From an uncultured virus (IMG/VR IMGVR_UViG_2061766007_000307) (taxonomy: Duplodnaviria > Heunggongvirae > Uroviricota > Caudoviricetes), in the IMG/VR virus record IMGVR_UViG_2061766007_000307: a DNA stretch of 64,000 nucleotides, one strand, 5' to 3'. Below the pieces are notes generated by a model that was given only the letters and a program-made list of their open reading frames with translations, was not told where the DNA came from and ran no database searches. A program made the translations under genes and the position numbers. Of the stretch, positions 2,675 to 52,278 are shown one piece after another (the stretch's first letter is position 1; each line of letters begins with the position of its first letter).

Positions 2675-2759
2675 CTTCGATTATGTATTAGGATATATTG
2701 TATTTACAATCACCAGGCAAATAAAACATGAGGAACTTGATGAAAGTTCCTCATTTTTG

Positions 2760-2838
2760 TGTCAGGAGATGGATTCGAACCACCAGGACACTTCTAACCT
2801 AGAATTCAAAGCTGCTTTACCCGTTTGCATATCCCGAC
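2760..2838 (-). tRNA. Atypical tRNA, possible CTA (amber) anticodon on an extended anticodon stem
   Basis: Acceptor GTCGGGA/TCCTGAC-A, D-arm TGC/GCA, T-arm GGTGG-TTCGAAT-CCATC; anticodon arm best folds as CTTTGAA-TTCTAGG-TTAGAAG. Confidence 0.6.
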
Positions 2839-2843
2839 AAATG

Positions 2844-2916
2844 CAGCGGAGACCGGACTCGAACCGGCGACACCATGATTAAGAATCGTGTACTCTACCA
2901 ACTGAGCTACTCCGCT
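2844..2916 (-). tRNA. tRNA-Lys(CTT)
   Basis: Acceptor AGCGGAG/CTCCGCT, anticodon loop TTCTTAA, T-loop TTCGAGT. Confidence 0.9.
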
Positions 2917-2939
2917 AAGGATGTAAACTATGCACTTAT

Positions 2940-3230
2940 TTACACCCCAAGATTGGTTGTTTTGCAAATACCGTTATAGTGCTTAAAGCTAAGGCTGTAA
3001 TCCATATGCATTAAACCACTCTGCCACTCCGGCATGATAATAGAAAGTGTGAACTTTGCGCCGGAGACGAGATTCGAACTCGCGATATATGAACGAAATC
3101 ATGATTATACACGATAGCACTATGGCTTTGCGATAAGGCTCTACAGTAATGCTCTTGACTCGATGCTTAAATCTAGGATGATATAAAGCTTGAATGTAAA
3201 GAGTAAATGTAAAGCTTCAGTCAATTTGTG
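2940..3230 (-). ncRNA. Circularly permuted tRNA-like RNA lacking an anticodon loop
   Basis: The 3' half (3093-3059) precedes the 5' half (3033-3001); perfect 7-bp acceptor stem, T-arm, D-arm and open 6-bp anticodon stem; outer boundaries approximate. Confidence 0.75.
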
Positions 3231-3258
3231 AGATATGGCTAACCCAATAGCCATATCC
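3231..3258. other. Stem-loop between the unknown gene and the permuted RNA
   Basis: GATATGGCTA-ACCCAA-TAGCCATATC inverted repeat. Confidence 0.6.
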
Positions 3259-3278
3259 CTGAAATAGTAATATGTAGT

Positions 3279-4100
3279 TTAGTTCTTCGCTCCGAAGAAT
3301 AGATATGATAGCATCTTGTCTATATCAAGATTAGCTTCTACAGACTCTGTATCGTTAACTTCCTTCAGTGCAGCTATCACAGCATCAAGGATCAACGACT
3401 TGCGTGACAACAAGAATGCTCTCTGAGTCTGTGTCCATTCTCCAGAAAACTCCTGTCTTGTCTGATCGGCCATTTCTACAATCTGCGCTCTCTCAACAAT
3501 AGCTGCACGGTAATTGGCAGGCAAGCACTTAGGATCTATATTAGGATCCTTCAAAATCTCCTGCGTTTTAACTGTTGTACGATCTACAGAGCGTATCACG
3601 TCTGTCTCATAAACCTCGCGGCTAGCATAATCTATAGTCTCAGACTTTGTCCATCTCTTTGAATCAGAGCGTACTGGAATATTCTTGAACATCTCGTCCA
3701 ATGATGCCATTGTAAGAATGTTCTTCAATCTCATCAATTCAACAGCAGTCAAATTTCCAAGCAAAACACCATCAACAACCAAAGGGACTCTTTTAGCGCC
3801 TACAGAATTGGTAGCCTCAATCTGGAACAGCAATTTCAAGTACTTAGGAAGTGCTCCTGTATGGGCGTCCTTGTCATTCAGCATGTAATTGAATTGTTCA
3901 GACACTGTTGTAGCAACTTTCTTGTCTGAGTGTTCTGAAGGCTTGTCTGAGAATCCCTCATGAGGCTCATAAGTTTTCAACTCGCCGATAAACTGTCCTT
4001 GCTTTGATTTGAAAAGAGTAGTGTAATCGCTGATCTCTTTTGCAGCAACGGTCTGAGCGTGATCTACAACACCCAGAAGTGTGTTCATTTTCATTGTCAT
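3279..4100 (-). CDS. Conserved helical protein of unknown function, directly upstream of the permuted RNA
   Basis: Likely start MTMKMNTLL at 4100, GTGATTATA motif at 4155-4163; recalled resemblance to the DUF7873 family is unverified. Confidence 0.8.
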   Translation of the reverse strand: MTMKMNTLLGVVDHAQTVAAKEISDYTTLFKSKQGQFIGELKTYEPHEGFSDKPSEHSDKKVATTVSEQFNYMLNDKDAHTGALPKYLKLLFQIEATNSVGAKRVPLVVDGVLLGNLTAVELMRLKNILTMASLDEMFKNIPVRSDSKRWTKSETIDYASREVYETDVIRSVDRTTVKTQEILKDPNIDPKCLPANYRAAIVERAQIVEMADQTRQEFSGEWTQTQRAFLLSRKSLILDAVIAALKEVNDTESVEANLDIDKMLSYLFFGAKN

Positions 4101-4560: not shown

Positions 4561-4563
4561 TAG

Positions 4564-4650
4564 CGGTGGCTGCAGGGTTCGAACCTGCGTACCGTATTAA
4601 CGGCCTAACAGTTTAGCAAACTGCCCTCTTAACCACTTGAGTAAACCACC
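4564..4650 (-). tRNA. tRNA-Ser(GCT)
   Basis: Anticodon arm GCAGT-TTGCTAA-ACTGT, long variable arm CCGT/ACGG, G73. Confidence 0.93.
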
Positions 4651-4672
4651 AGAATGTATTTGTACATTATTG

Positions 4673-4745
4673 TACGAGGTACGGGATTCGAACCCGTGAT
4701 CTCCACCGTGAAAGGGTGGCGTCCAAACCACTAGACGGACCCCGC
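4673..4745 (-). tRNA. tRNA-Glu(TTC)
   Basis: Anticodon arm CCACC-CTTTCAC-GGTGG, T-arm ACGGG-TTCGAAT-CCCGT. Confidence 0.92.
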
Positions 4746-6421: not shown

Positions 6422-8302
6422 TCATTTATACGTGGTCTGAAAGTTTTGATCGTTAGAATAATGCGTCATAGTACACTTGTAAGTTTTCACGAATTTCAAC
6501 TTTCCAGCATCCCATATTTTGTATGCATGCCTAGACCGCATTACATAGTCTTCCGTCAGCGAAGGGTCTTTCCTACATTCTTCAAGCTTGCATTTCATGA
6601 AATTCGACCTATGGTATCTGATGCCATTGATAGCCCATGAATAGCATGGAGCAGATAATCCGCATTCTTCAAACCCGCATACTTTATAGACATTGCCTTT
6701 TGTATAACATAGATCTCCATATGTGATGATTTCACGTGGATGATACATCCTTTCGAAATATTTCAGCATCTTCGAAAAGCCGCCAGACACTTCAGTGTCT
6801 TTGCAAGACACAACTCTATATATCTCATACGATCCTTCTTTTGGCTTCGATCCCATAGAATTGCGCAGCTTGCCGACAAGCATGACTTCAACTAATTCGC
6901 CATCATAGAACAGACCTATCTTATATGTTGAATTTACATATCCTTGTATATGATATGCGTTTACAAAAGGCGCAGCGCTCTTGCTGTCTATCTCTCTGAC
7001 TTCACATTTCCTTGCATGCACTCTCCTGGAGCATAAATGCAGTTTGGACTTGATGTAATCTTTAATGATATCCTGTCTCAAATACCAATCATCTTCCCAT
7101 ATATGTAATAATTGATACCCTAACTCATTGCATTTCAATGACTTATTTTGATGGTATTTCTTGTGCATCCTTGGGTTGAAATCTGAATGCCAGAATATTC
7201 CATTAAACTCTATAGCTATTCTCTTTTCAGGAATCACTATATCTAGCTCTAACGGATATATCAGTTTGCGGTCTCCAGATATAATCTCTCCATTGTAGAT
7301 GCTCTTGATATAATCAAGAAGCCCTGTTTCTGCTATGGATGAGCAGCCTATATATGGTGATTTTATAGGACATATTATGCTTGACTGCGATGATCTGCGT
7401 GTATACAGATTCTTATCTATCTCAAAAGACTTTTCAGTACACATGGAGCATGTAGGGTCGCTGCAAGATACTACATACGTATCTTGAGTCTCTCTTATTA
7501 TGTCTGGATGTCTTTCTAAAAATAACGAATGATTGATATCAATCATGTCTGATGTTTGGGTAAACCACTTTCCATCATATTTCTGAAAATTGGTCTCCAT
7601 TCTCTTTTTTATAACATCAGGGTTGAATGAAGGATTCTCGTAGCCTGTCTTGTTCCTGTATGTTTTCTGTATTTTTGTTTTGACTATATCAGACTGCATA
7701 GCATAGTCTGTACCGTATTTCATACGGCATGTCTTCATGGATTTGTCATGGAAATCTACCATCTCAAAAGGTGTTGCCACACCATATTTCGCCATACATG
7801 TAGCTTTCTGTTTAGCTTGGACATCCTTAGACTGTCCTACCCATTCTACGCCATATCTCTCCTTGAATGTATTGCATATGCGATCTTTCACAACAGATGA
7901 TTTGAATACATTATCTACTCCATATCTGTTGATCACTGTCTGTCTGCATGTTTCTTTCTTATCAGGATCTGCGTTGCAGCATTTAGAGCTGCAGTATATA
8001 GGGTATCCCGATTTGAAGTTCCTGAACTTCGTAGGACGTCCACATACCTTGCACAAGCCAGCTGCATGAGGATTGAAATATATGAATAATCGCTCAGAAA
8101 AGCTCTTATTTGCGCAGATCTCGGCAGACGTGATATCTTTATACAATTCAGGAAAACACTTAGAAAATACATGTTCTTTTTTGAACATGCCATTTGAGGT
8201 CTCTACTTGAAGGAAAGCGTATACATCTTCTTTGTTTGACGGGTTTCCTGAAAAGTGATATCTATCAAAAAGTTCTTTTATGTCTACGGGTCTCTTTGTC
8301 AT
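6422..8302 (-). CDS. Free-standing homing-endonuclease-like protein
   Basis: CxxC and YCSSKC zinc motifs, repeated T(C)xx(K/R)YG units, ELDIVIPEKRIAIEFNGIFWH Vsr/PD-(D/E)XK-like nuclease motif, IWEDDW. Confidence 0.78.
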   Translation of the reverse strand: MTKRPVDIKELFDRYHFSGNPSNKEDVYAFLQVETSNGMFKKEHVFSKCFPELYKDITSAEICANKSFSERLFIYFNPHAAGLCKVCGRPTKFRNFKSGYPIYCSSKCCNADPDKKETCRQTVINRYGVDNVFKSSVVKDRICNTFKERYGVEWVGQSKDVQAKQKATCMAKYGVATPFEMVDFHDKSMKTCRMKYGTDYAMQSDIVKTKIQKTYRNKTGYENPSFNPDVIKKRMETNFQKYDGKWFTQTSDMIDINHSLFLERHPDIIRETQDTYVVSCSDPTCSMCTEKSFEIDKNLYTRRSSQSSIICPIKSPYIGCSSIAETGLLDYIKSIYNGEIISGDRKLIYPLELDIVIPEKRIAIEFNGIFWHSDFNPRMHKKYHQNKSLKCNELGYQLLHIWEDDWYLRQDIIKDYIKSKLHLCSRRVHARKCEVREIDSKSAAPFVNAYHIQGYVNSTYKIGLFYDGELVEVMLVGKLRNSMGSKPKEGSYEIYRVVSCKDTEVSGGFSKMLKYFERMYHPREIITYGDLCYTKGNVYKVCGFEECGLSAPCYSWAINGIRYHRSNFMKCKLEECRKDPSLTEDYVMRSRHAYKIWDAGKLKFVKTYKCTMTHYSNDQNFQTTYK

Positions 8303-8569: not shown

Positions 8570-9319
8570 TTATTCCTGATATGGGACAGGATCTTTAAGA
8601 CCATTAACAGCAAAAGCTTCTAAGCGCTCTGTGCAGCTACCGCACTTTCCGCAGCTCTTTACTTCGTCGCTACCATCACCGCAAGGGATAGGATTGTAAC
8701 ATGTATGAGTATTTCTCAATACTTCTTCTCTTTCAGATTCAGTGAATCCCAAATGCTGCATTGCAGCAATACCAGATGCAAGAACAGCGCCTTTATCAAT
8801 ATTGACAAACGGTGCAATATAATCGACTCTCTCACTGCCCCAGTTTGAGAGGGCGTACAGCTCTCGTGCCATCTTTTGCGATGCTTCGCGACAATCGGGG
8901 TATATCGCGTGGTCCCCAGCGTGCAATCCCAAAGTAATCTTGACATCACTCTTAGTCTTGTTAGCCCAGCCCAAAGCCTTACCATAAATGATAGAAGAGA
9001 AAATGATATTACGGTTTTCAACAACAGTAGACTTCATATTCTCGTCAGCATAATGTCCTTCTGGAATAGCTTCGCCGCCTTTGTGCAGAGATGATGCAGA
9101 ATCCGAAAAACAATCGCGAAGATCAATGATCTGGTGTGAAACATTGAATCCTTTGTCCTGAAGGAACTTGATATTATTCTGGACCTTACGCAATTCAACA
9201 TCATGCTTCTGTCCATAGTTGAACGAGAATGCTCTAATTTCGTCGTAGCCGTTTGCAAGAAGATGCATCAACAGGCATGTGGAATCCAGTCCGCCGCTTA
9301 AACTTATAACTGCTTTCAT
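8570..9319 (-). CDS. queC: 7-cyano-7-deazaguanine synthase
   Basis: SGGLDS PP-loop, YGQKH, RN, YPDCR, TCY...CGKCGSCTER zinc site. Confidence 0.95.
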   Translation of the reverse strand: MKAVISLSGGLDSTCLLMHLLANGYDEIRAFSFNYGQKHDVELRKVQNNIKFLQDKGFNVSHQIIDLRDCFSDSASSLHKGGEAIPEGHYADENMKSTVVENRNIIFSSIIYGKALGWANKTKSDVKITLGLHAGDHAIYPDCREASQKMARELYALSNWGSERVDYIAPFVNIDKGAVLASGIAAMQHLGFTESEREEVLRNTHTCYNPIPCGDGSDEVKSCGKCGSCTERLEAFAVNGLKDPVPYQE

Positions 9320-10307: not shown

Positions 10308-10841
10308 TCAGAGTATATCGCGAACTTCCATCAAAATAAATCCTAGCCTGTTCTCTCCCAGCCATTCAGAAGGGTGTACAGATTTTGGAGACCGCGCATC
10401 CAAGCCTATACCCCATCTCCTATCATATGGACTTGCTTCAGCCAGTATCATACCTCGAGTAGATACCAGAAGATCTTTCAGTTTCGGGTTCTGACTGAAC
10501 TTTGCAATATTACCTTTCAAGACTATATCATTGACAACAGTGTTCCATGTATTGTCATTGAAATTCCTGACTTTGCGTCCCAATGCCTTTATATTCTTGG
10601 GATCTGTTGTAGCCATGATCAAGTCGAAGGCAGCCTTATCATTGAACGCCATAGCCTTCATAGCCATCATATACTGTTCCATGCATACGTATTTCACGTT
10701 ATCTACAGTGAACTCGCTTATATACCATTGTGAAAAGGGTGCATACTTCCCATCTTTAGGATATGGACCCCAAAAGAAAGCAAAGGACAAGTGCTGCCCT
10801 TTGCGTTCAAGTTCAATAAGATCTTTGATTCTGTATTTCAT
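10308..10841 (-). CDS. NADAR (YbiA-like) family hydrolase
   Basis: FSQWY, EQYMMAMKA, KALGRKV, KFSQN, EASPYDRRWGIG, GENRLG. Confidence 0.93.
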   Translation of the reverse strand: MKYRIKDLIELERKGQHLSFAFFWGPYPKDGKYAPFSQWYISEFTVDNVKYVCMEQYMMAMKAMAFNDKAAFDLIMATTDPKNIKALGRKVRNFNDNTWNTVVNDIVLKGNIAKFSQNPKLKDLLVSTRGMILAEASPYDRRWGIGLDARSPKSVHPSEWLGENRLGFILMEVRDIL

Positions 10842-11321: not shown

Positions 11322-12547
11322 TTATTTACAAGATTTACTATATTGACGTTTCATCGGGTGTCCAATGACATTGCCCTCACCGTCCTTAATCCCACTTCCC
11401 GACGGGATTTTATTTTCGATTGCATCCAGGGCTTGCGGATGCAGACCAAACTGCAATATATTCTTTGCAGCGTTCACGTCCCTATCATGGTGTTCGCCAC
11501 AAACAGGACATGTCCACTCTCTTACATTGAGGTTTTTGACATCCTTGTTCTGATAGCCGCACTTGTGGCATATCTGGCTAGATGGATCAAAGCGACCTAT
11601 AAACACAACGTTCTTGCCATACCATTCGCTCTTGTATGTAAGCTGCCTTACAAACTCTCCCCAAGAAACAGACTGTATAGCTCTCGCAAGATGATGGTTC
11701 TTCAACATACTGTCAACATTAAGGTCTTCCAGACATATTGTGTCGAATCTCTTCACAATATGTCTGTGGATAATTTGTGAAGATAATCCGACCTTTGGTT
11801 GGCTATCTTTCTGTGTTGCCTTGCAACCTTTAGCCTCATTTCTTCATGACGCTTTGACGTCTTTTCAGTCCTTGCGAACTTCTGCTGAAGCTTTTTCAGT
11901 TTCCTTTGGCCACGTTCAAAGTACTTCGGATTACTATATTTCGTACCGTCAGACAATGTAGCAAAGTCCTTTATTCCCAGGTCGATTCCAACAGCAGTTT
12001 CCTCTTGTATCTTGGCTTTCGATACATTCGGCTTGCCGTCGTCGACTACGATGGAACACCAGTAATCTCCACATTTGTCTCTTGATACAGTCAACGTGCC
12101 AATCTTGCAAGTTGAAAGGTCAAACTCTTGGTTGTGACACAGTTTCATCCACCCTATCTTTGGTATCTTCACCTTGTTCTTTTCGAAGTCGAAATGAACA
12201 CTATTGATGAACTTGCACACGTCCTTTGAGTGCTTCTTTGACTTAAACTTAGGGAATCCTTTCTTTGACTTGAAGAACTGCGTGTATGCATTGTCGAGAC
12301 AGCGCAATGACTGCTGTAACGCTTCATTTGTACAATCATTGAGCCATTTATACTCTTCAGTATGTTTAAGCAATGTCAGTTCTTTTGCGAGTTGCAGGTA
12401 CGTTACGTTTTTCTTTGTTTCTTTGTATGTCTCAACTTTTCGGTCAAGTCCCCAATTGTATATAAAACGAGCACAGCCGAAGAATTGAGACAGCATGATC
12501 TGCTGCTTCACTGTCGGTTTTATTTTGTATTTGTACGCTCGTTTCAT
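11322..12547 (-). pseudogene. tnpB: TnpB family 2, frameshifted by a 2-nt insertion near 11758
   Basis: MKRAYKY...GIDLG...LHKLSTD in one frame and [11 protein letters not shown]...CPVC...DRDVNAA in the next; GAC-AT-ATT-GTG junction; 3' end differs from family 1 (ATGAAACGTCAA). Confidence 0.85.
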
Positions 12548-12558
12548 AATAGATGATT

Positions 12559-12803
12559 GTGAACTACTCATGAACTAAAGATTCATGTGCTTCAGATTTC
12601 AACGGGATGTTTGCGTTGCGTACAGACTAGCTTTTCAGTTGGTCTAGACTCCGTCTTATTAGTCCATCCTTCCGTATAATCGATCGTTCCAGTCGATGTT
12701 GTTTTATCAACACTGTAAAGATACAATGATGATTTTACATTTACAAGAAATTTTGGACTTTTTGTGTGATTCATCACAGAAACTGAAGATTTCAAGGTTT
12801 TTC
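12559..12803 (-). mobile_element. Non-autonomous cassette: left-end hairpin, TATCTTTAC promoter-like motif, omegaRNA, right end
   Basis: Homologous to 12810, 37235 and 38722; right end lies 11 nt upstream of the family-2 tnpB ATG. Confidence 0.85.
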
Positions 12804-27233: not shown

Positions 27234-28427
27234 ATGGTAAAAATATACAAAACATATAAATACATGATGTGCCCGAATAAGGAGCAGGAAAGTGTTCTTG
27301 CGAGATATTTCGGGTCAGTCCGCTTTGTGTATAACCATTTCCTTGCTGAACGCAAAAGACAGTATAGTGAGAGCGGTAAGAGTGACAACTACCGCACACA
27401 AGCAAAAGCTTTGACCTTGTTGAAAAAGAAAGAAGATTTCGCTTGGCTGAAGGAAATCAACTCCCAGACACTACAGTTCTCTCTTCGCTGTTTGGAAACC
27501 GCATATACTAACTTTTTTAGCGGTAGAACGAAGTTTCCGAGATTCAAGATTAAAAAGAATGGAGGTAGTTTCACTGTTCCTCAGAACTGCTCCATCAAAG
27601 ATGGGAAAATCTACATACCAAAGTTCAAGCAAGGCATCAAAATCAAGGAGCACAGAACATTCCAAGGGAATGTCAGGAATATGACGATCTCCATAACGCC
27701 AAGCGGGAAATACTATGTTTCTATATTATCCGAAGTCGAACATAAGCCTTTGAGGAAAACCAACAAGAAGGTAGGGATAGACTTAGGTATCAAAGATTTC
27801 ATAGTAACTAGCGATGGTATGAGGTATTCAAGCAACAAGTTTGTCAAGCATTATGCCAAGAAACTTACAAAGGCTCAAAAGCGTTTGTCCAAAAAGTACA
27901 AAGGAAGTGGAGAGTGGCATAGGATGCGATTGAAGGTTGCGAGAATACAAGAGAAGATACACAACTGCCGTATGGACAAGTTGCATAAGATTTCCGCCGA
28001 TTTGGTAAGGAATTATGATGTGATTTGCTGCGAGGACTTGAATGTGAAAGGAATGCAGAGAAACCACAAACTCGCTCAAAGCATAGCTGATGCGAGCTGG
28101 GGTATGTTCTTGAATTTGCTTTCGTACAAATGTGAGAGGGACGATAAGCAGCTTGTTAAAGTGAGCAGGTTCTATCCATCCTCAAAGACTTGTAGCCACT
28201 GTGGTTATGTCAAGAAAGATTTGTCTCTGAAAGACAGATATTGGAAATGTCCTCATTGCGGGAATATGATCGATAGAGATTTGAATGCATCGATCAACAT
28301 CCTGAACGAAGGTATCAGAAATATATCGGCTGGAACGGTCGATTATACGGAGGGAGCAGACGTAAGACCTACTCGTGGGCAGTCAGCGTTGAAATCCGAA
28401 GCCTGCGAATCTTTAGTTCGTGGGTAG
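27234..28427 (+). CDS. tnpB: TnpB family 1, intact RuvC triad
   Basis: HTH N-terminus, GIDLG, CCEDL, zinc finger, DRDLNA; right end TTCAC at 28428-28432. Confidence 0.95.
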   Translation: MVKIYKTYKYMMCPNKEQESVLARYFGSVRFVYNHFLAERKRQYSESGKSDNYRTQAKALTLLKKKEDFAWLKEINSQTLQFSLRCLETAYTNFFSGRTKFPRFKIKKNGGSFTVPQNCSIKDGKIYIPKFKQGIKIKEHRTFQGNVRNMTISITPSGKYYVSILSEVEHKPLRKTNKKVGIDLGIKDFIVTSDGMRYSSNKFVKHYAKKLTKAQKRLSKKYKGSGEWHRMRLKVARIQEKIHNCRMDKLHKISADLVRNYDVICCEDLNVKGMQRNHKLAQSIADASWGMFLNLLSYKCERDDKQLVKVSRFYPSSKTCSHCGYVKKDLSLKDRYWKCPHCGNMIDRDLNASINILNEGIRNISAGTVDYTEGADVRPTRGQSALKSEACESLVRG

Positions 28428-50914: not shown

Positions 50915-52278
50915 CAAGAAAACCTCGAAATCTTTAGTTTCGTGGATGAATTGCACTAACCTTGGTTTACTATATAATCACTTATAGTGTCAGGATTAGC
51001 TTCTTCTATCGAACAAACTAAGCTTAAAAAGAGTTGTAAATTTGCAAAAATATATGTAATTTTACAGAAAAATTATAAAATGGTAAAGATATACAGAACA
51101 TACAAGTATAGGATGTATCCGAATAAGGAGCAAGAGCAAGTTCTTGCGAGATATTTCGGCTCTGTCCGTTTTGTGTATAACCATTTCCTTGCTGAACGCA
51201 AAAGGCAATACGAAGAGAACGGTAAGAGCGATAACTATCTTGCACAGGCAAAAACTTTGACCTTGCTGAAAAAGAAAGAAGATTTCGCATGGCTAAAAGA
51301 GATCAACTCCCAAACCTTGCAGTTTTCTCTCCGCTGTTTAGAAACCGCCTATACTAACTTTTTCAGCGGTAGAACGAAGTTTCCGAGATTCAAGACGAAG
51401 AAGCACGGAGGTAGCTTCACTGTCCTGCAAAACTGCTCTATCAAAGATGGAAAAATCTTTATTCCGAAGTTCAAACAAGGCATCAAAATCAAAGAGCACA
51501 GAGCATTCCAAGGGAATGTTAGAAATATGACGATTTCGGTCACACCAAGCGGGAAATGCTATGTTTCCATATTATCCGAAGTTGAACACGAACCTTCAAG
51601 GAAAACCAACAAGAAGGTCGGGATAGATTTAGGCATCAAGGATTTCATAGTAGCTAGCGATGGTGTGAGGTATTCAAGCAACACGTTTGTCAAGCATTAT
51701 GCTAAAAAGCTTACAAAAGCTCAAAAGTGCTTATCAAAGAAGCATAATGGTAGCGGTGAATGGCATAGGATGCGATTGAAGGTTGCGAAGATACATGAGA
51801 AGATACATAACTGCCGTATGGACAAATTGCATAAGATTTCTGCCGATTTGGTAAGGAATTATGATGTGATTTGTTGCGAGGATTTGAATGTGAAAGCTAT
51901 GCAGAGAAACCACAAGCTCGCACAAAGTATAGCTGATGCTAGCTGGGGTGCATTCTTGAATCTACTTTCGTACAAATGTGCGAGAGAAGATAAGCAGCTT
52001 GTCAAGATAGACAGGTTCTATCCTTCTTCAAAGACTTGCAGTCACTGCGGTTATGTTAAGAAAGACTTGTCTCTAAAAGACAGAACCTGGAAATGCCCTC
52101 ATTGCAGACAGATGATTGATCGCGATCTGAATGCCGCGATCAATATCCTAAATGAAGGCATTAGAAATATATCGGCTGGAACGGTCGATTATACGGAGGG
52201 AGCAGATGTAAGACCTACTTGTAGGCTGTCAGCGTTGAAATCCGAAGCCCGTGGATCTTTAGTTCATGAGTAGTTCAC
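50915..52278 (+). mobile_element. Non-autonomous IS200/IS605-type element (left end, tnpB, right end; no tnpA)
   Basis: Left hairpin CCTCGAAATCTTTAGTTTCGTGG and right hairpin ending GTAGTTCAC; left boundary approximate. Confidence 0.78.
51080..52273 (+). CDS. tnpB: TnpB family 1, intact RuvC triad
   Basis: Start MVKIYRTY by homology with 27234; same motifs. Confidence 0.95.
   Translation: MVKIYRTYKYRMYPNKEQEQVLARYFGSVRFVYNHFLAERKRQYEENGKSDNYLAQAKTLTLLKKKEDFAWLKEINSQTLQFSLRCLETAYTNFFSGRTKFPRFKTKKHGGSFTVLQNCSIKDGKIFIPKFKQGIKIKEHRAFQGNVRNMTISVTPSGKCYVSILSEVEHEPSRKTNKKVGIDLGIKDFIVASDGVRYSSNTFVKHYAKKLTKAQKCLSKKHNGSGEWHRMRLKVAKIHEKIHNCRMDKLHKISADLVRNYDVICCEDLNVKAMQRNHKLAQSIADASWGAFLNLLSYKCAREDKQLVKIDRFYPSSKTCSHCGYVKKDLSLKDRTWKCPHCRQMIDRDLNAAINILNEGIRNISAGTVDYTEGADVRPTCRLSALKSEARGSLVHE

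Follow-up and report, generated by a model that had tools for sequence, protein, structure and literature searches.

What kind of molecule is encoded on the minus strand between the stop codon of a protein gene and the tRNA genes that follow it in an uncultured Caudoviricetes virus? The whole stretch of DNA analysed here, 64,000 nt in length (the window), holds at this place two short segments that together form the stems of a tRNA, in swapped order and with open ends in place of an anticodon loop. Whether such an arrangement is a functional RNA, and what it might do for the phage, is the question that this locus raises.

The permuted cloverleaf

Both segments were verified by a sequence check. 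The upstream half read by the first-pass annotation, TTCATA-TATC-GCGAG-TTCGAAT-CTCGT-CTCCGGC-G, is exact at 3093..3059 of the minus strand; after a 25-nt spacer (3058..3034), the downstream half, GCCGGAG-TG-GCA-GAGTGGTTTAA-TGC-A-TATGGA, is equally exact at 3033..3001. The core opens with the 3' strand of the anticodon stem, followed by the T arm and the 3' strand of the acceptor; beyond the 25-nt spacer come the acceptor's 5' strand, the D arm and the 5' strand of the anticodon stem. It comprises the following parts.

3002..3092, minus strand: circularly permuted tRNA-like core, from the sequence, the covariance model R1, pairing and covariation
3092..3088 (3' strand) and 3006..3002 (5' strand), minus strand: anticodon-like stem
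3087..3084, minus strand: variable region
3083..3067, minus strand: T arm
3066..3060 (3' strand) and 3033..3027 (5' strand), minus strand: acceptor stem
3059 and 3058, minus strand: G73 and C74
3058..3034, minus strand: AT-rich spacer of 25 nt between the acceptor strands
3024..3008, minus strand: D arm

The acceptor features noted earlier were borne out, with seven of seven positions paired, C3-G70 as the third pair and G73 as the discriminator. The position after the discriminator is C in 15/15 elements, as in a tRNA-type 3' end; the same C is found in the six Rfam-mapped tRNAs of the window, and 54 of 59 ARAGORN tRNA calls within these loci carry a terminal C. The core is tRNA-grade in all four stems, in its 7-bp acceptor and N73-C74, and in the nucleotides of its T and D loops. 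D-arm similarity gave no consistent isoacceptor identity. At the permuted core ARAGORN called neither a tRNA nor a tmRNA, and Rfam called nothing at its gathering score.

A covariance model built for the permuted cloverleaf (R1) assigned 48–97 bits to true elements versus at most 41.5 bits to junctions of ordinary neighbouring tRNAs, and scored the window element at 59.5 bits (E ~1e-12). Among 10 homologues, standard pairs were present in 199/199 cells of an alignment that was fitted to R1 and is thereby biased toward the structure; the raw sequences show the same pairs. Control pairing amounted to 66.6% in shuffles and to 38–52% when the partners were slid by 1–3 columns. Both sides had changed in 17 of the 20 core pairs across the 10 homologues, and the core covariation score (0.932 vs 0.229) was reached by 0/500 shuffles. 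The complete pairing and the doubly changed pairs thus confirm the swapped order of acceptor, T, D and anticodon stems that had been proposed from the letters. They support, at the level of sequence, the view that the permuted element is a functional, selected tRNA mimic without an anticodon.

The halves had also been considered as possible remnants of two ordinary decayed tRNAs in tandem. A 17-bit full-length tRNA alignment (E 0.84) at 3126..3059 did hint at a degenerate 5' half. This reading was rejected because the permuted pairs covary.

Extent, domains and setting of the RNA

The core is embedded in a larger structured RNA of Lak-like gut megaphages. The 273-aa open reading frame upstream of it, reported in the first pass, was confirmed and is assigned by Pfam to DUF7873.

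4100..3279, minus strand: DUF7873 gene, 273 aa (Pfam DUF7873, E 2.1e-26)
3278..2917, minus strand: whole structured non-coding RNA, ~360 nt, stretching at most from the stop codon of DUF7873 up to the following tRNA
3155..3224, minus strand: upstream hairpin domain H2, with stem TTGACT (3224..3219) and AGTCAA (3160..3155)
3177..3172, minus strand: H2 apical motif CCUAGA, containing a UAG triplet
3146..3161, minus strand: block with the strongest conservation of primary sequence, GAGTCAAGAGCATTAC; the family consensus is TTGWGTCRANAGCWTTAG, and the window and L005 agree exactly here
3117..3131, minus strand: upstream strand of a long-range helix, GCAAAGCCATAGTGC, pairing with 2982..2964
2964..2982, minus strand: downstream strand of that helix, GCACTAT-AAC-GGT-A-TTTGC, with a conserved 3-nt AAC bulge at 2975..2973
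3100..3113, minus strand: small hairpin CGTG-TATAAT-CATG, directly 5' of the anticodon-like stem, seen in the sequences
2919..2948, minus strand: terminal hairpin ahead of the next tRNA; all homologues have a hairpin at this place

The flanks of the window RNA are conserved in L005, L020 and 11 further homologues, as they are in the complete Lak-type genomes, and the consensus pattern of the conserved block pulls out Lak-like contigs. The H2 stem covaries, reading TTGACT/AGTCAA, TCGAC/GTCGA (L020, L035, L043) or TTGACAC/GTGTCAA (L039), and its helix was selected by RNAalifold. Taken alone, the window copy of H2 has no stable minimum-energy fold (z -0.25). Folding of the flanks with the core swapped for a tetraloop served as a rough guide only, and when RNAalifold was given three full elements as aligned by plain MAFFT, its structure was unreliable because the alignment was off.

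The interior of H2 is rich in AGC with a period of ~6 nt. A 6-nt periodicity had been noted in the window, where it is weak (the base autocorrelation peaks at lag 8 with 0.35, lag 6 giving 0.30), whereas among the relatives it is clear: lag 6 is the top or joint top of lags 1–11 in 11/14 sequences, at 0.32–0.42. As for triplets, UAG enrichment was tried as a signal and rejected, since AGC rather than TAG was the most enriched in 12/14 sequences.

The 5-bp anticodon-like stem of the core runs on into the covarying long-range helix with its AAC bulge. In the window 10/10 pairs form around the bulge. Nine or ten of the 10 pairs are formed in 12/14 sequences, and in 12/14 the partner window lies at a constant offset, 24–26 nt past the conserved motif. 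Covariation is exemplified by CATAGT/ACTATG in Lak-C1 versus CATGGT/ACCATG in Lak-B2. By duplex energy, only 5/14 sequences had an observed value that was equalled by 10 or fewer of 200 shuffles. On inspection of the sequences, the small hairpin reads CGTG..CATG in the window, L005, L034 and Lak, and TTCG..CGAA in G001. The terminal hairpin of L039 and L041 has a GC-rich stem followed by a T run and resembles an intrinsic terminator.

The coupling of RNA and gene that had been suspected from the window held in part. The RNA follows DUF7873 in 12 lineages (the window, L005, L020, L034–L041 and L043), whereas the DUF7873 genes of Lak A/B/C-type phages (L001–L004, L028–L033) have no such RNA after them. 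In four genomes of this type searched in full, the RNA lies ~140–290 kb from the DUF7873 gene and has its own upstream region. R1 found one strong match per complete Lak-type genome (73–84 bits in 4/4), the next matches reaching at most 31 bits. In Lak-B2 and G001 the RNA sits behind an AT-rich spacer, after an apparent divergent gene. Judged from these sequences, it is a stand-alone structured non-coding RNA, present in single copy in the four complete Lak-type megaphage genomes searched. Neither an exact two-part pattern scan of the collection nor a search of genome contigs by pattern and by profile yielded new elements, and 12 of the 13 loci from a 16-mer scan were chance matches. The phages of this RNA family also have tRNA genes with long insertions, and the element sits inside tRNA arrays.

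DUF7873 may be a protein partner of the RNA. An AF2 model of the protein (pLDDT 84.6, pTM 0.70) had no Foldseek match in the PDB at E <=0.001, the top rows including Cas7 subunits at TM <=0.16, and no match in BFVD. Profile searches of the sequence gave 0 matches in the PDB, and 0 families were matched in PHROGs.

Contigs assembled from RNA libraries cover 3060-3215, 3161-3358 and 3220-3400. In two libraries, from two studies, a contig that still includes the upstream flank stops at the final base of the acceptor, 3060; these ends are a weak hint of two-piece processing. No back-splice joints were reported and positions 3014-3059 are uncovered, and since the RNA runs were available as assembled contigs only, the missing joints and cover are neutral either way. 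In a proposed scheme, tRNA-processing enzymes would cut the AT-rich spacer that closes the acceptor stem, with RNase P acting on the 5' side and 3' trimming and CCA completion following after N73-C74. The product would be a two-piece RNA with a tRNA-like CCA end, on the analogy of YrlA from Mycobacterium smegmatis, which has a 7-bp acceptor stem and for which PMC4201824 describes cutting by RNase P and the attachment of CCA.

The H2 loop and a special downstream tRNA

A partner tRNA is encoded 100–400 nt downstream (in the window, 80 nt from the RNA), and its anticodon is CUA, which reads amber, in the window and most relatives.

2838..2759, minus strand: partner, an unusual 80-nt tRNA with anticodon CUA (ARAGORN 'tRNA-Pyl (cta)')
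2843..2916, minus strand: ordinary tRNA-Lys(CUU) between the RNA and the partner (ARAGORN and Rfam)

The partner has a 7-position anticodon stem, CUUUGAA/UUAGAAG, and the loop UUCUAGG at 2804..2798; it escapes Rfam at the gathering score. Over 6 nt, this loop is complementary to the H2 apex of the window. An unconstrained search of the 650 nt downstream for the longest complement to the interior of H2 was not discriminative, shuffles often giving an equal result, and a positional test was therefore used. In this test, which was devised post hoc once the pattern had been noticed, the reverse complement of a locus's own apex was located 14–22 nt before a T loop in 11/13 loci, with a chance expectation of 0.005–0.024 per locus. 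Four matched variant pairs were recovered: CCTAGA/TCTAGG, ACTAGA/TCTAGT (L035), CCTGGA/TCCAGG (L036) and GAGGAG/CTCCTC (L039). A fifth pair, TGTGGGG/CCCCACA of L041, falls outside the positional window, in an adjacent insert-bearing tRNA, which brings the loop variants to five in all. When apex motifs were compared with loci of a different variant, 0/84 matches occurred. The apex/partner pair was present in 20/22 further IMG/VR loci, which are not independent of one another; there was no clear partner loop for L038 (700 nt searched) or L020. Across phages, these loci show that the H2 apex and the anticodon-type loop of a special tRNA change together.

The complementary loop need not belong to a canonical anticodon arm: a Leu(CAA)-like tRNA of type II has it in its long extra arm in Lak A/B/C, L034 and L040. 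The matching triplets in L036 and L039 would read as Trp and Glu codons, so that an amber-suppressor-specific role cannot be general. Reading TAG as sense brought almost no gain in the window. The context of CCUAGA is locally self-complementary (AAAUC-CUA-GAUUU), and this region could close into a triloop hairpin instead.

Proposed role, rival readings and known systems

We infer that the RNA is a tRNA mimic that base-pairs with a dedicated, mostly amber-suppressor, tRNA, and put the chances of this function at about even. The H2 loop and the anticodon loop of the partner would form a kissing complex, through which the RNA would sequester, escort or report on the partner tRNA; it might, for example, hold an amber suppressor inactive, or present the suppressor to an enzyme by means of its tRNA-like handle. 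Lak-type megaphages are among the largest known phages, and in late genes many of them translate TAG as an amino acid. A further-reaching proposal, doubtful though conceivable, is that the RNA represents a new class of riboregulator. As a processed tRNA mimic with a CCA end, it would use its codon-bearing loop to capture the anticodon loop of an amber-suppressor or other special tRNA encoded by the phage itself; it would gate decoding by that tRNA and so set when, in Lak-type megaphage infection, the standard code gives way to the recoded one. This timing is named as an open question by Borges et al. (bioRxiv 10.1101/2021.08.26.457843). An RNA that mimics a tRNA and co-varies with a CUA tRNA is a testable candidate for the control of suppressor tRNAs, and might constitute a novel type of RNA that binds tRNAs. 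Standard tRNA, tmRNA and Rfam detectors overlook the RNA and its non-canonical tRNA partners alike. In the literature on Y RNAs, permuted tRNAs, Lak and other megaphages, recoding suppressor tRNAs and tRNA mimics, we found no description of the RNA; its loop-loop covariation with the downstream CUA tRNA is new here.

Other readings were weighed against this one. The first-pass annotation had suggested a two-piece tmRNA-like RNA with a non-alanine charge, acting in ribosome rescue or tagging. Its gene order is that of two-piece tmRNAs, the permuted tmRNA models RF04321, RF01850 and RF01851 give weak matches (16–19 bits) at the junction of T arm and acceptor, and Ala/Leu-rich frames (SRALALA*, SRALL*) follow the conserved motif, the frame EALHLLFTFKLYIILDLSIESRALL* of the window being confirmed in the sequence. 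However, tagging was not supported. G3:U70 occurs in 0/10 sequences (acceptor pair 30-72: G3-C70 in four, C3-G70 in three, A3-U70 in two and U3-G70 in one). The frame extends for 5 to >50 residues after the motif to differing stops, runs into the tRNA-like core in 3/14 sequences, and is conserved at its start and not at its end. The RNA is recognised as a tmRNA neither by ARAGORN, which reports none at these loci, nor by Rfam at the gathering score, and SmpB and a canonical one-piece tmRNA above the Rfam gathering score are already present in 4/4 Lak-type genomes; we give this reading almost no credence. The companion suggestion of a decoy for anticodon nucleases found no support because the element has no anticodon loop. 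It is likewise extremely unlikely that the RNA is a 3'-UTR or processing element whose tRNA-shaped end defines and protects the 3' end of the DUF7873 mRNA within the tRNA array. The RNA does stand directly after the stop codon in the 12 lineages, and library contigs span the end of the reading frame and the flank (3161-3358, 3220-3400), but it is distant from the DUF7873 gene in all four Lak A/B/C-type genomes, follows the AT-rich spacer behind the apparent divergent gene in Lak-B2 and G001, and would leave the covariation with the tRNA loop unexplained. A genuine permuted (split) tRNA gene, whose open ends are circularised or spliced into a decoding tRNA, would agree with the tRNA-grade stems, 7-bp acceptor, N73-C74 and T/D-loop nucleotides, and with tRNA arrays in phages that have long-insertion tRNA genes. 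We consider it highly improbable, as neither side of the open stem has a conserved U33, purine-37 or anticodon in 13 sequences, and RNA-library contigs reach from the upstream flank through the 3' half to the end of the acceptor without a break; moreover, bacteria are not known to have a BHB splicing system. A permuted group I intron-exon arrangement, for which the flank lengths would suit a small intron, is not favoured: the would-be splice-site bases vary, and the Rfam E-value scans gave no group I row, although permuted halves could escape the model.

The loop-loop covariation would fit equally with a cis-acting T-box-like leader, in which the codon-like loop of H2 senses the partner tRNA and the terminal hairpin then governs how the downstream tRNA genes are read through or processed, giving the tRNA feedback on its own synthesis. 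The RNA is always upstream of the partner tRNA on the same strand, and in L039 and L041 the partner gene comes directly after the terminator-like hairpin. Such a leader nevertheless seems unlikely to us: Rfam scans gave no T-box row at E up to 5–10, no conserved UGGN antiterminator bulge was apparent, most loci have a terminal hairpin lacking the T run and an intervening ordinary tRNA, and the upkeep of a complete tRNA mimic is left unexplained. We also considered an orthologue of YrlA, serving in the repair or decay of RNA by linking a Ro60-like ring protein to an effector. The module order is identical (V-T-AS-D in PMC4201824), and the Rfam YrlA model RF02553 matches the L035 element over its full length (positions 1-114). 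That match, at 35.5 bits, has half the gathering score of 69 bits and is found in 1/11 loci, the window giving none at E up to 10. GTCGAAAG in L020 and L035 fits the Y RNA motif GNCGAAN0-1G, expected in the 5' portion, but in just 2/14 sequences, the others reading GTCAAGAG, GTCGAGAG, GTCAATAG or GTCAACAG at this site. TROVE/Ro60 (PF05731) was found in 0/4 Lak-type genomes by a search that was positive in 2/14 controls, and was absent among the 41 window ORFs scanned. As the RNA is also three times the length of YrlA and has additional conserved domains, orthology appears very unlikely.

The phage RNA stands near several known systems. Like Stem I of a T-box with its specifier, it offers a codon in a loop to the anticodon of one tRNA and changes with that anticodon; unlike a T-box, its complementarity spans 6 nt, which in the partner loop are positions 33-38 or 34-39, it has no T-box sequence or Rfam match, it carries a tRNA mimic of its own, and it belongs to phages of Bacteroidota hosts. 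In Cyanidioschyzon merolae and some archaea, permuted tRNA genes share with it a cloverleaf 3' half upstream of the 5' half and a short acceptor linker; circularisation at a BHB motif gives those genes a full anticodon loop. In contrast to these, the open ends of the phage RNA run on into conserved helices, and anticodon-loop nucleotides are not conserved there.

Two-piece tmRNAs (RF01849-51, RF04321) resemble it in that the acceptor 5' strand is preceded by the T arm and the 3' strand of the acceptor, an AT-rich loop whose excision is expected lies in between, a long helix takes the place of the anticodon arm, and the architecture is large and multi-domain. The phage RNA differs from them in its full D arm and 5-bp anticodon-like stem and in lacking G3:U70 and a conserved tag frame, and its phages have a separate tmRNA and SmpB. 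YrlA-type Y RNAs (RF02553; Chen et al. 2014, PMC4201824) likewise have a variable region, T arm, acceptor stem-loop and D arm in this order. Their tRNA-like module is entered via a helix in the place of the anticodon stem and has tRNA-grade T and D loops, and some members are phage-encoded. YrlA measures ~115 nt, compared with ~360 nt for the phage RNA, which scores far below the Rfam gathering level and occurs in phages where no Ro60/TROVE gene was found. To the shared module the phage RNA adds the covarying AAC-bulge long-range helix, the AGC-periodic hairpin domain, and a loop that co-varies with an anticodon-type tRNA loop. Whatever its function, it is a third natural family with a circularly permuted tRNA fold, after two-piece tmRNA and YrlA.

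A permuted cloverleaf inside a conserved RNA

The homologues demonstrate a conserved multi-domain RNA. It contains a tRNA mimic in permuted order, and one of its loops co-evolves with that of a special tRNA encoded nearby. In the window, which derives from a Lak-like megaphage, the RNA covers about 360 nt (3278..2917, minus strand), with its tRNA-like core at 3092..3002. The layout just 3' of the DUF7873 stop codon is exactly as the first-pass annotation wrote it: the 3' strand of an anticodon-like stem, a variable region, a T arm, the 3' strand of the acceptor, G73, an AT-rich spacer of 25 nt, the 5' strand of the acceptor, a D arm and the 5' strand of the anticodon-like stem. Neither ARAGORN nor Rfam at gathering score made a call at this element in the window. 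Two homologous loci, L005 (protein 79% identical) and L020 (46%), share this arrangement, but their stems are built from different sequences.

A covariance model of the permuted cloverleaf (R1), built here, scored true elements at 48-97 bits, against 41.5 bits for the best junction of two ordinary neighbouring tRNAs. In an alignment of 10 sequences, 199/199 cells were paired, and 17 of the 20 pairs had changed on both sides. The observed values were not reached in any of 500 shuffles, and pairing fell to 38-52% when the partners were displaced by 1-3 columns. The permuted element exceeds chance. The score gap, the pairing, the double changes and both controls rule out a reading as two decayed tRNAs and show the two halves to be a single structure under selection. 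In L038 (2470-2602), the spacer is enlarged by a 133-nt insertion, which has a long hairpin of its own. Large inserts are thus tolerated in the spacer, as would be expected if it were cut out.

The flanks of the core are conserved as well. The stem of the upstream hairpin domain H2 (3224..3155, minus strand) covaries (TTGACT/AGTCAA, TCGAC/GTCGA, TTGACAC/GTGTCAA), and its interior is AGC-rich with a lag-6 periodicity. After H2 comes the most conserved block of the RNA, GAGTCAAGAGC, followed by one strand of a long-range helix, whose partner strand lies downstream of the core and is interrupted by a conserved AAC bulge of 3 nt. Of the 10 positions flanking this bulge, 9-10 are paired in 12 of 14 sequences; the best-pairing upstream window also falls at the same offset, 24-26 nt past the conserved motif, in 12 of 14. 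Close relatives have compensating changes (CATAGT/ACTATG in Lak-C1 vs CATGGT/ACCATG in Lak-B2). The unit closes with a terminal hairpin, which is intrinsic-terminator-like in L039 and L041. Thermodynamic support for the structure is modest, and covariation carries the case.

The window (3232-3257, minus strand) and L005 have a hairpin GGCTA-TTGGG-TTAGCC at the 5' edge of the RNA; L038, L040 and L043 have a similar one, GGGCTA...TTAGCC, at its 3' edge. Terminal-hairpin loops have GAGGAT(T/A)T in common, or GTGGAAATTT in Lak.

The H2 apex and its probable partner tRNA

The H2 apex in the window reads CCUAGA (3177..3172). An unusual tRNA of 80 nt lies 80 bases downstream of the RNA, past tRNA-Lys(CUU):

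2759-2838 (-), partner tRNA, labelled Pyl(cta) by ARAGORN and missed by Rfam at gathering score

Folded by hand, it has a 7-position anticodon stem with a G.A mismatch and a loop UUCUAGG, giving the anticodon CUA. The UCUAGG of this loop is the exact complement of the apex, a pair found unchanged in L005, L034, L040, L043, Lak-B2, Lak-C1 and G001. Four loci present variants (apex/partner): ACTAGA/TCTAGT in L035, CCTGGA/TCCAGG in L036, GAGGAG/CTCCTC in L039 and TGTGGGG/CCCCACA in L041. Partner loops resemble anticodon loops (UU-CUA-GG, UU-CCA-GG, UU-CUC-CU); in Lak A/B/C, L034 and L040, the complementary loop is found instead in the long extra arm of a Leu(CAA)-like tRNA.

A positional test asked, for each locus, whether the 700 nt downstream contain the complement of that locus's apex 6-mer at a distance of 14-22 nt ahead of a T loop. 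Devised after the pattern was noticed, and with just five variants in existence, it was positive in 11 of 13 loci, with a chance of 0.005-0.024 per locus; L038 missed, as did L041, whose match is within an insert and distant from the T loop. Apex motifs set against loci of a different variant gave 0/84 matches. Searching IMG/VR with the conserved block gave another 22 loci; 20 of them had the pair, and none added a variant. From these sequence comparisons, we judge the apex-partner pairing likely to be real.

An RNA-library contig from a related strain differs at two bases in the 5' stem strand of the partner tRNA (2806, 2808). Elsewhere, tRNA genes of 96-181 nt are enlarged by long insertions or by very long extra arms; a single one of them is called by ARAGORN, and several hold a loop complementary to the RNA apex.

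tRNA genes with insertions or long arms
L041 2612-2770, anticodon region longer by about 85 nt
L035 2779-2899
L005 ~4563-4730
L034 3156-3255
L046 1238-1333
L051 1960-2060

In the mechanism we propose, RNase P and 3' processing would open the spacer, leaving a two-piece, CCA-ended mimic; the H2 loop would kiss the anticodon-type loop of the partner tRNA, and the RNA may sequester, escort or report on that tRNA. The main rival is a cis-acting, T-box-like variant of this loop-tRNA idea. Because two of the loop variants correspond to Trp and Glu triplets, the role cannot be amber-specific everywhere. There is little sign of TAG recoding in the window. Across 19000-39100, translation with TAG as Gln extends just 2 of 9 long ORFs, each through a single read-through; the standard code is in use here, even though the phage encodes a CUA tRNA.

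Genomic surroundings and the DUF7873 gene

The 273-aa ORF upstream of the RNA (4100..3279, minus strand) encodes a DUF7873 protein (Pfam), is 66-69% identical at the DNA level to 15 Prevotella Lak phage records, and is enclosed by a minus-strand tRNA array. The protein model has a confident fold (pLDDT 84.6); structure comparison of this predicted model matched no known fold, and the PDB had no sequence match. Large terminase, lysozyme and TnpB genes are also present in the window, along with a putative base-modification cluster.

Other genes in the window
27234-28427 (+), 50987-52273 (+) and 11753-12571 (-), TnpB-like genes; two full (HTH_OrfB_IS605, OrfB_IS605, Cas12f1-like TNB), one shorter copy without the TNB domain
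6422-8302, 8570-9319 and 10308-10841 (-), DUF7487/Mom-like/REase protein, QueC (7-deazaguanine pathway) and NADAR domain protein, suggesting DNA or RNA base modification

A DUF7873 profile search of IMG/VR gave 17 loci, in which the element was sought 3' of the gene by a simple script and inspection. It was present in 11 (L037 is cut by the contig end; L038 has the 133-nt spacer insertion), and the six Lak A/B/C-like loci, L028-L033, had none within 1.5 kb of the gene. Scanning three complete Lak genomes and one 553-kb IMG/VR genome with R1 returned a single strong match each (73-84 bits; next <=31 bits). In all four, the entire RNA including its flanks is conserved, lies far from the DUF7873 gene and has tRNA-Lys(UUU) after it; in Lak-B2 and G001 it stands 3' of an AT-rich spacer behind an apparently divergent gene. 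With its flanks kept and surroundings of its own, the RNA is therefore an independent gene. The coupling to the upstream protein that had been proposed holds as adjacency in 12 other lineages, a synteny that is suggestive and no more, and does not extend to these four genomes.

Comparison with tmRNA, split tRNAs and Y RNA

A tmRNA-like RNA had been suggested, but the RNA is not a tmRNA. G3:U70 occurs in 0/10 aligned sequences. The AL-rich reading frame is present as described, and across 14 homologues its start is kept and its end and stop are not, which argues against a tag, for which the reverse pattern would be seen. SmpB is already encoded in 4/4 Lak-type genomes (E about 1e-55; e.g. Lak-B2 118712-119143), as is a canonical one-piece tmRNA above the Rfam gathering score (47-54 bits), 7-9 kb from the permuted RNA in three of the four.

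Canonical tmRNAs in Lak-type genomes
Lak-A1 MK250015.1, 223026-223421
Lak-C1 MK250029.1, 182229-182625
G001, 314698-315093
Lak-B2 MK250021.1, 417475-417884

No Rfam 15 family reaches threshold on the RNA. We found no published description of it in the literature; supplementary tables on Lak and huge phages, outside the search, could list it as an unannotated feature. According to Borges et al., recoding phages may rely on 'novel types of RNA molecules', and suppressor tRNAs may be of non-canonical form; the passages concerned describe no RNA of this kind (bioRxiv 10.1101/2021.08.26.457843).

Among the homologues compared, no conserved U33, anticodon or purine 37 stands beside the open anticodon-like stem. 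The acceptor end resembles true phage tRNA genes, with C after the discriminator in 15/15 elements; ARAGORN ends the window tRNAs one base, a C, past Rfam position 73 in 6/6, and 54 of its 59 calls across loci end in C and 5 in CCA. Contigs from two RNA libraries (two studies) both end at 3060, the last acceptor base, with the upstream flank still joined, a weak hint that tRNA-processing enzymes cut the spacer.

The Rfam YrlA model aligned at full length with the L035 copy, 1 of 11 loci, at 35.5 bits, half the gathering score, and 4/4 Lak-type genomes gave no TROVE/Ro60 gene in a search that was positive in control genomes. The RNA does not qualify as a YrlA, but the architecture is common to both: in the sections of PMC4201824 on YrlA, the module order is the same as in the phage RNA, and cutting of the spacer by tRNA-processing enzymes is demonstrated for the M. 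smegmatis YrlA.
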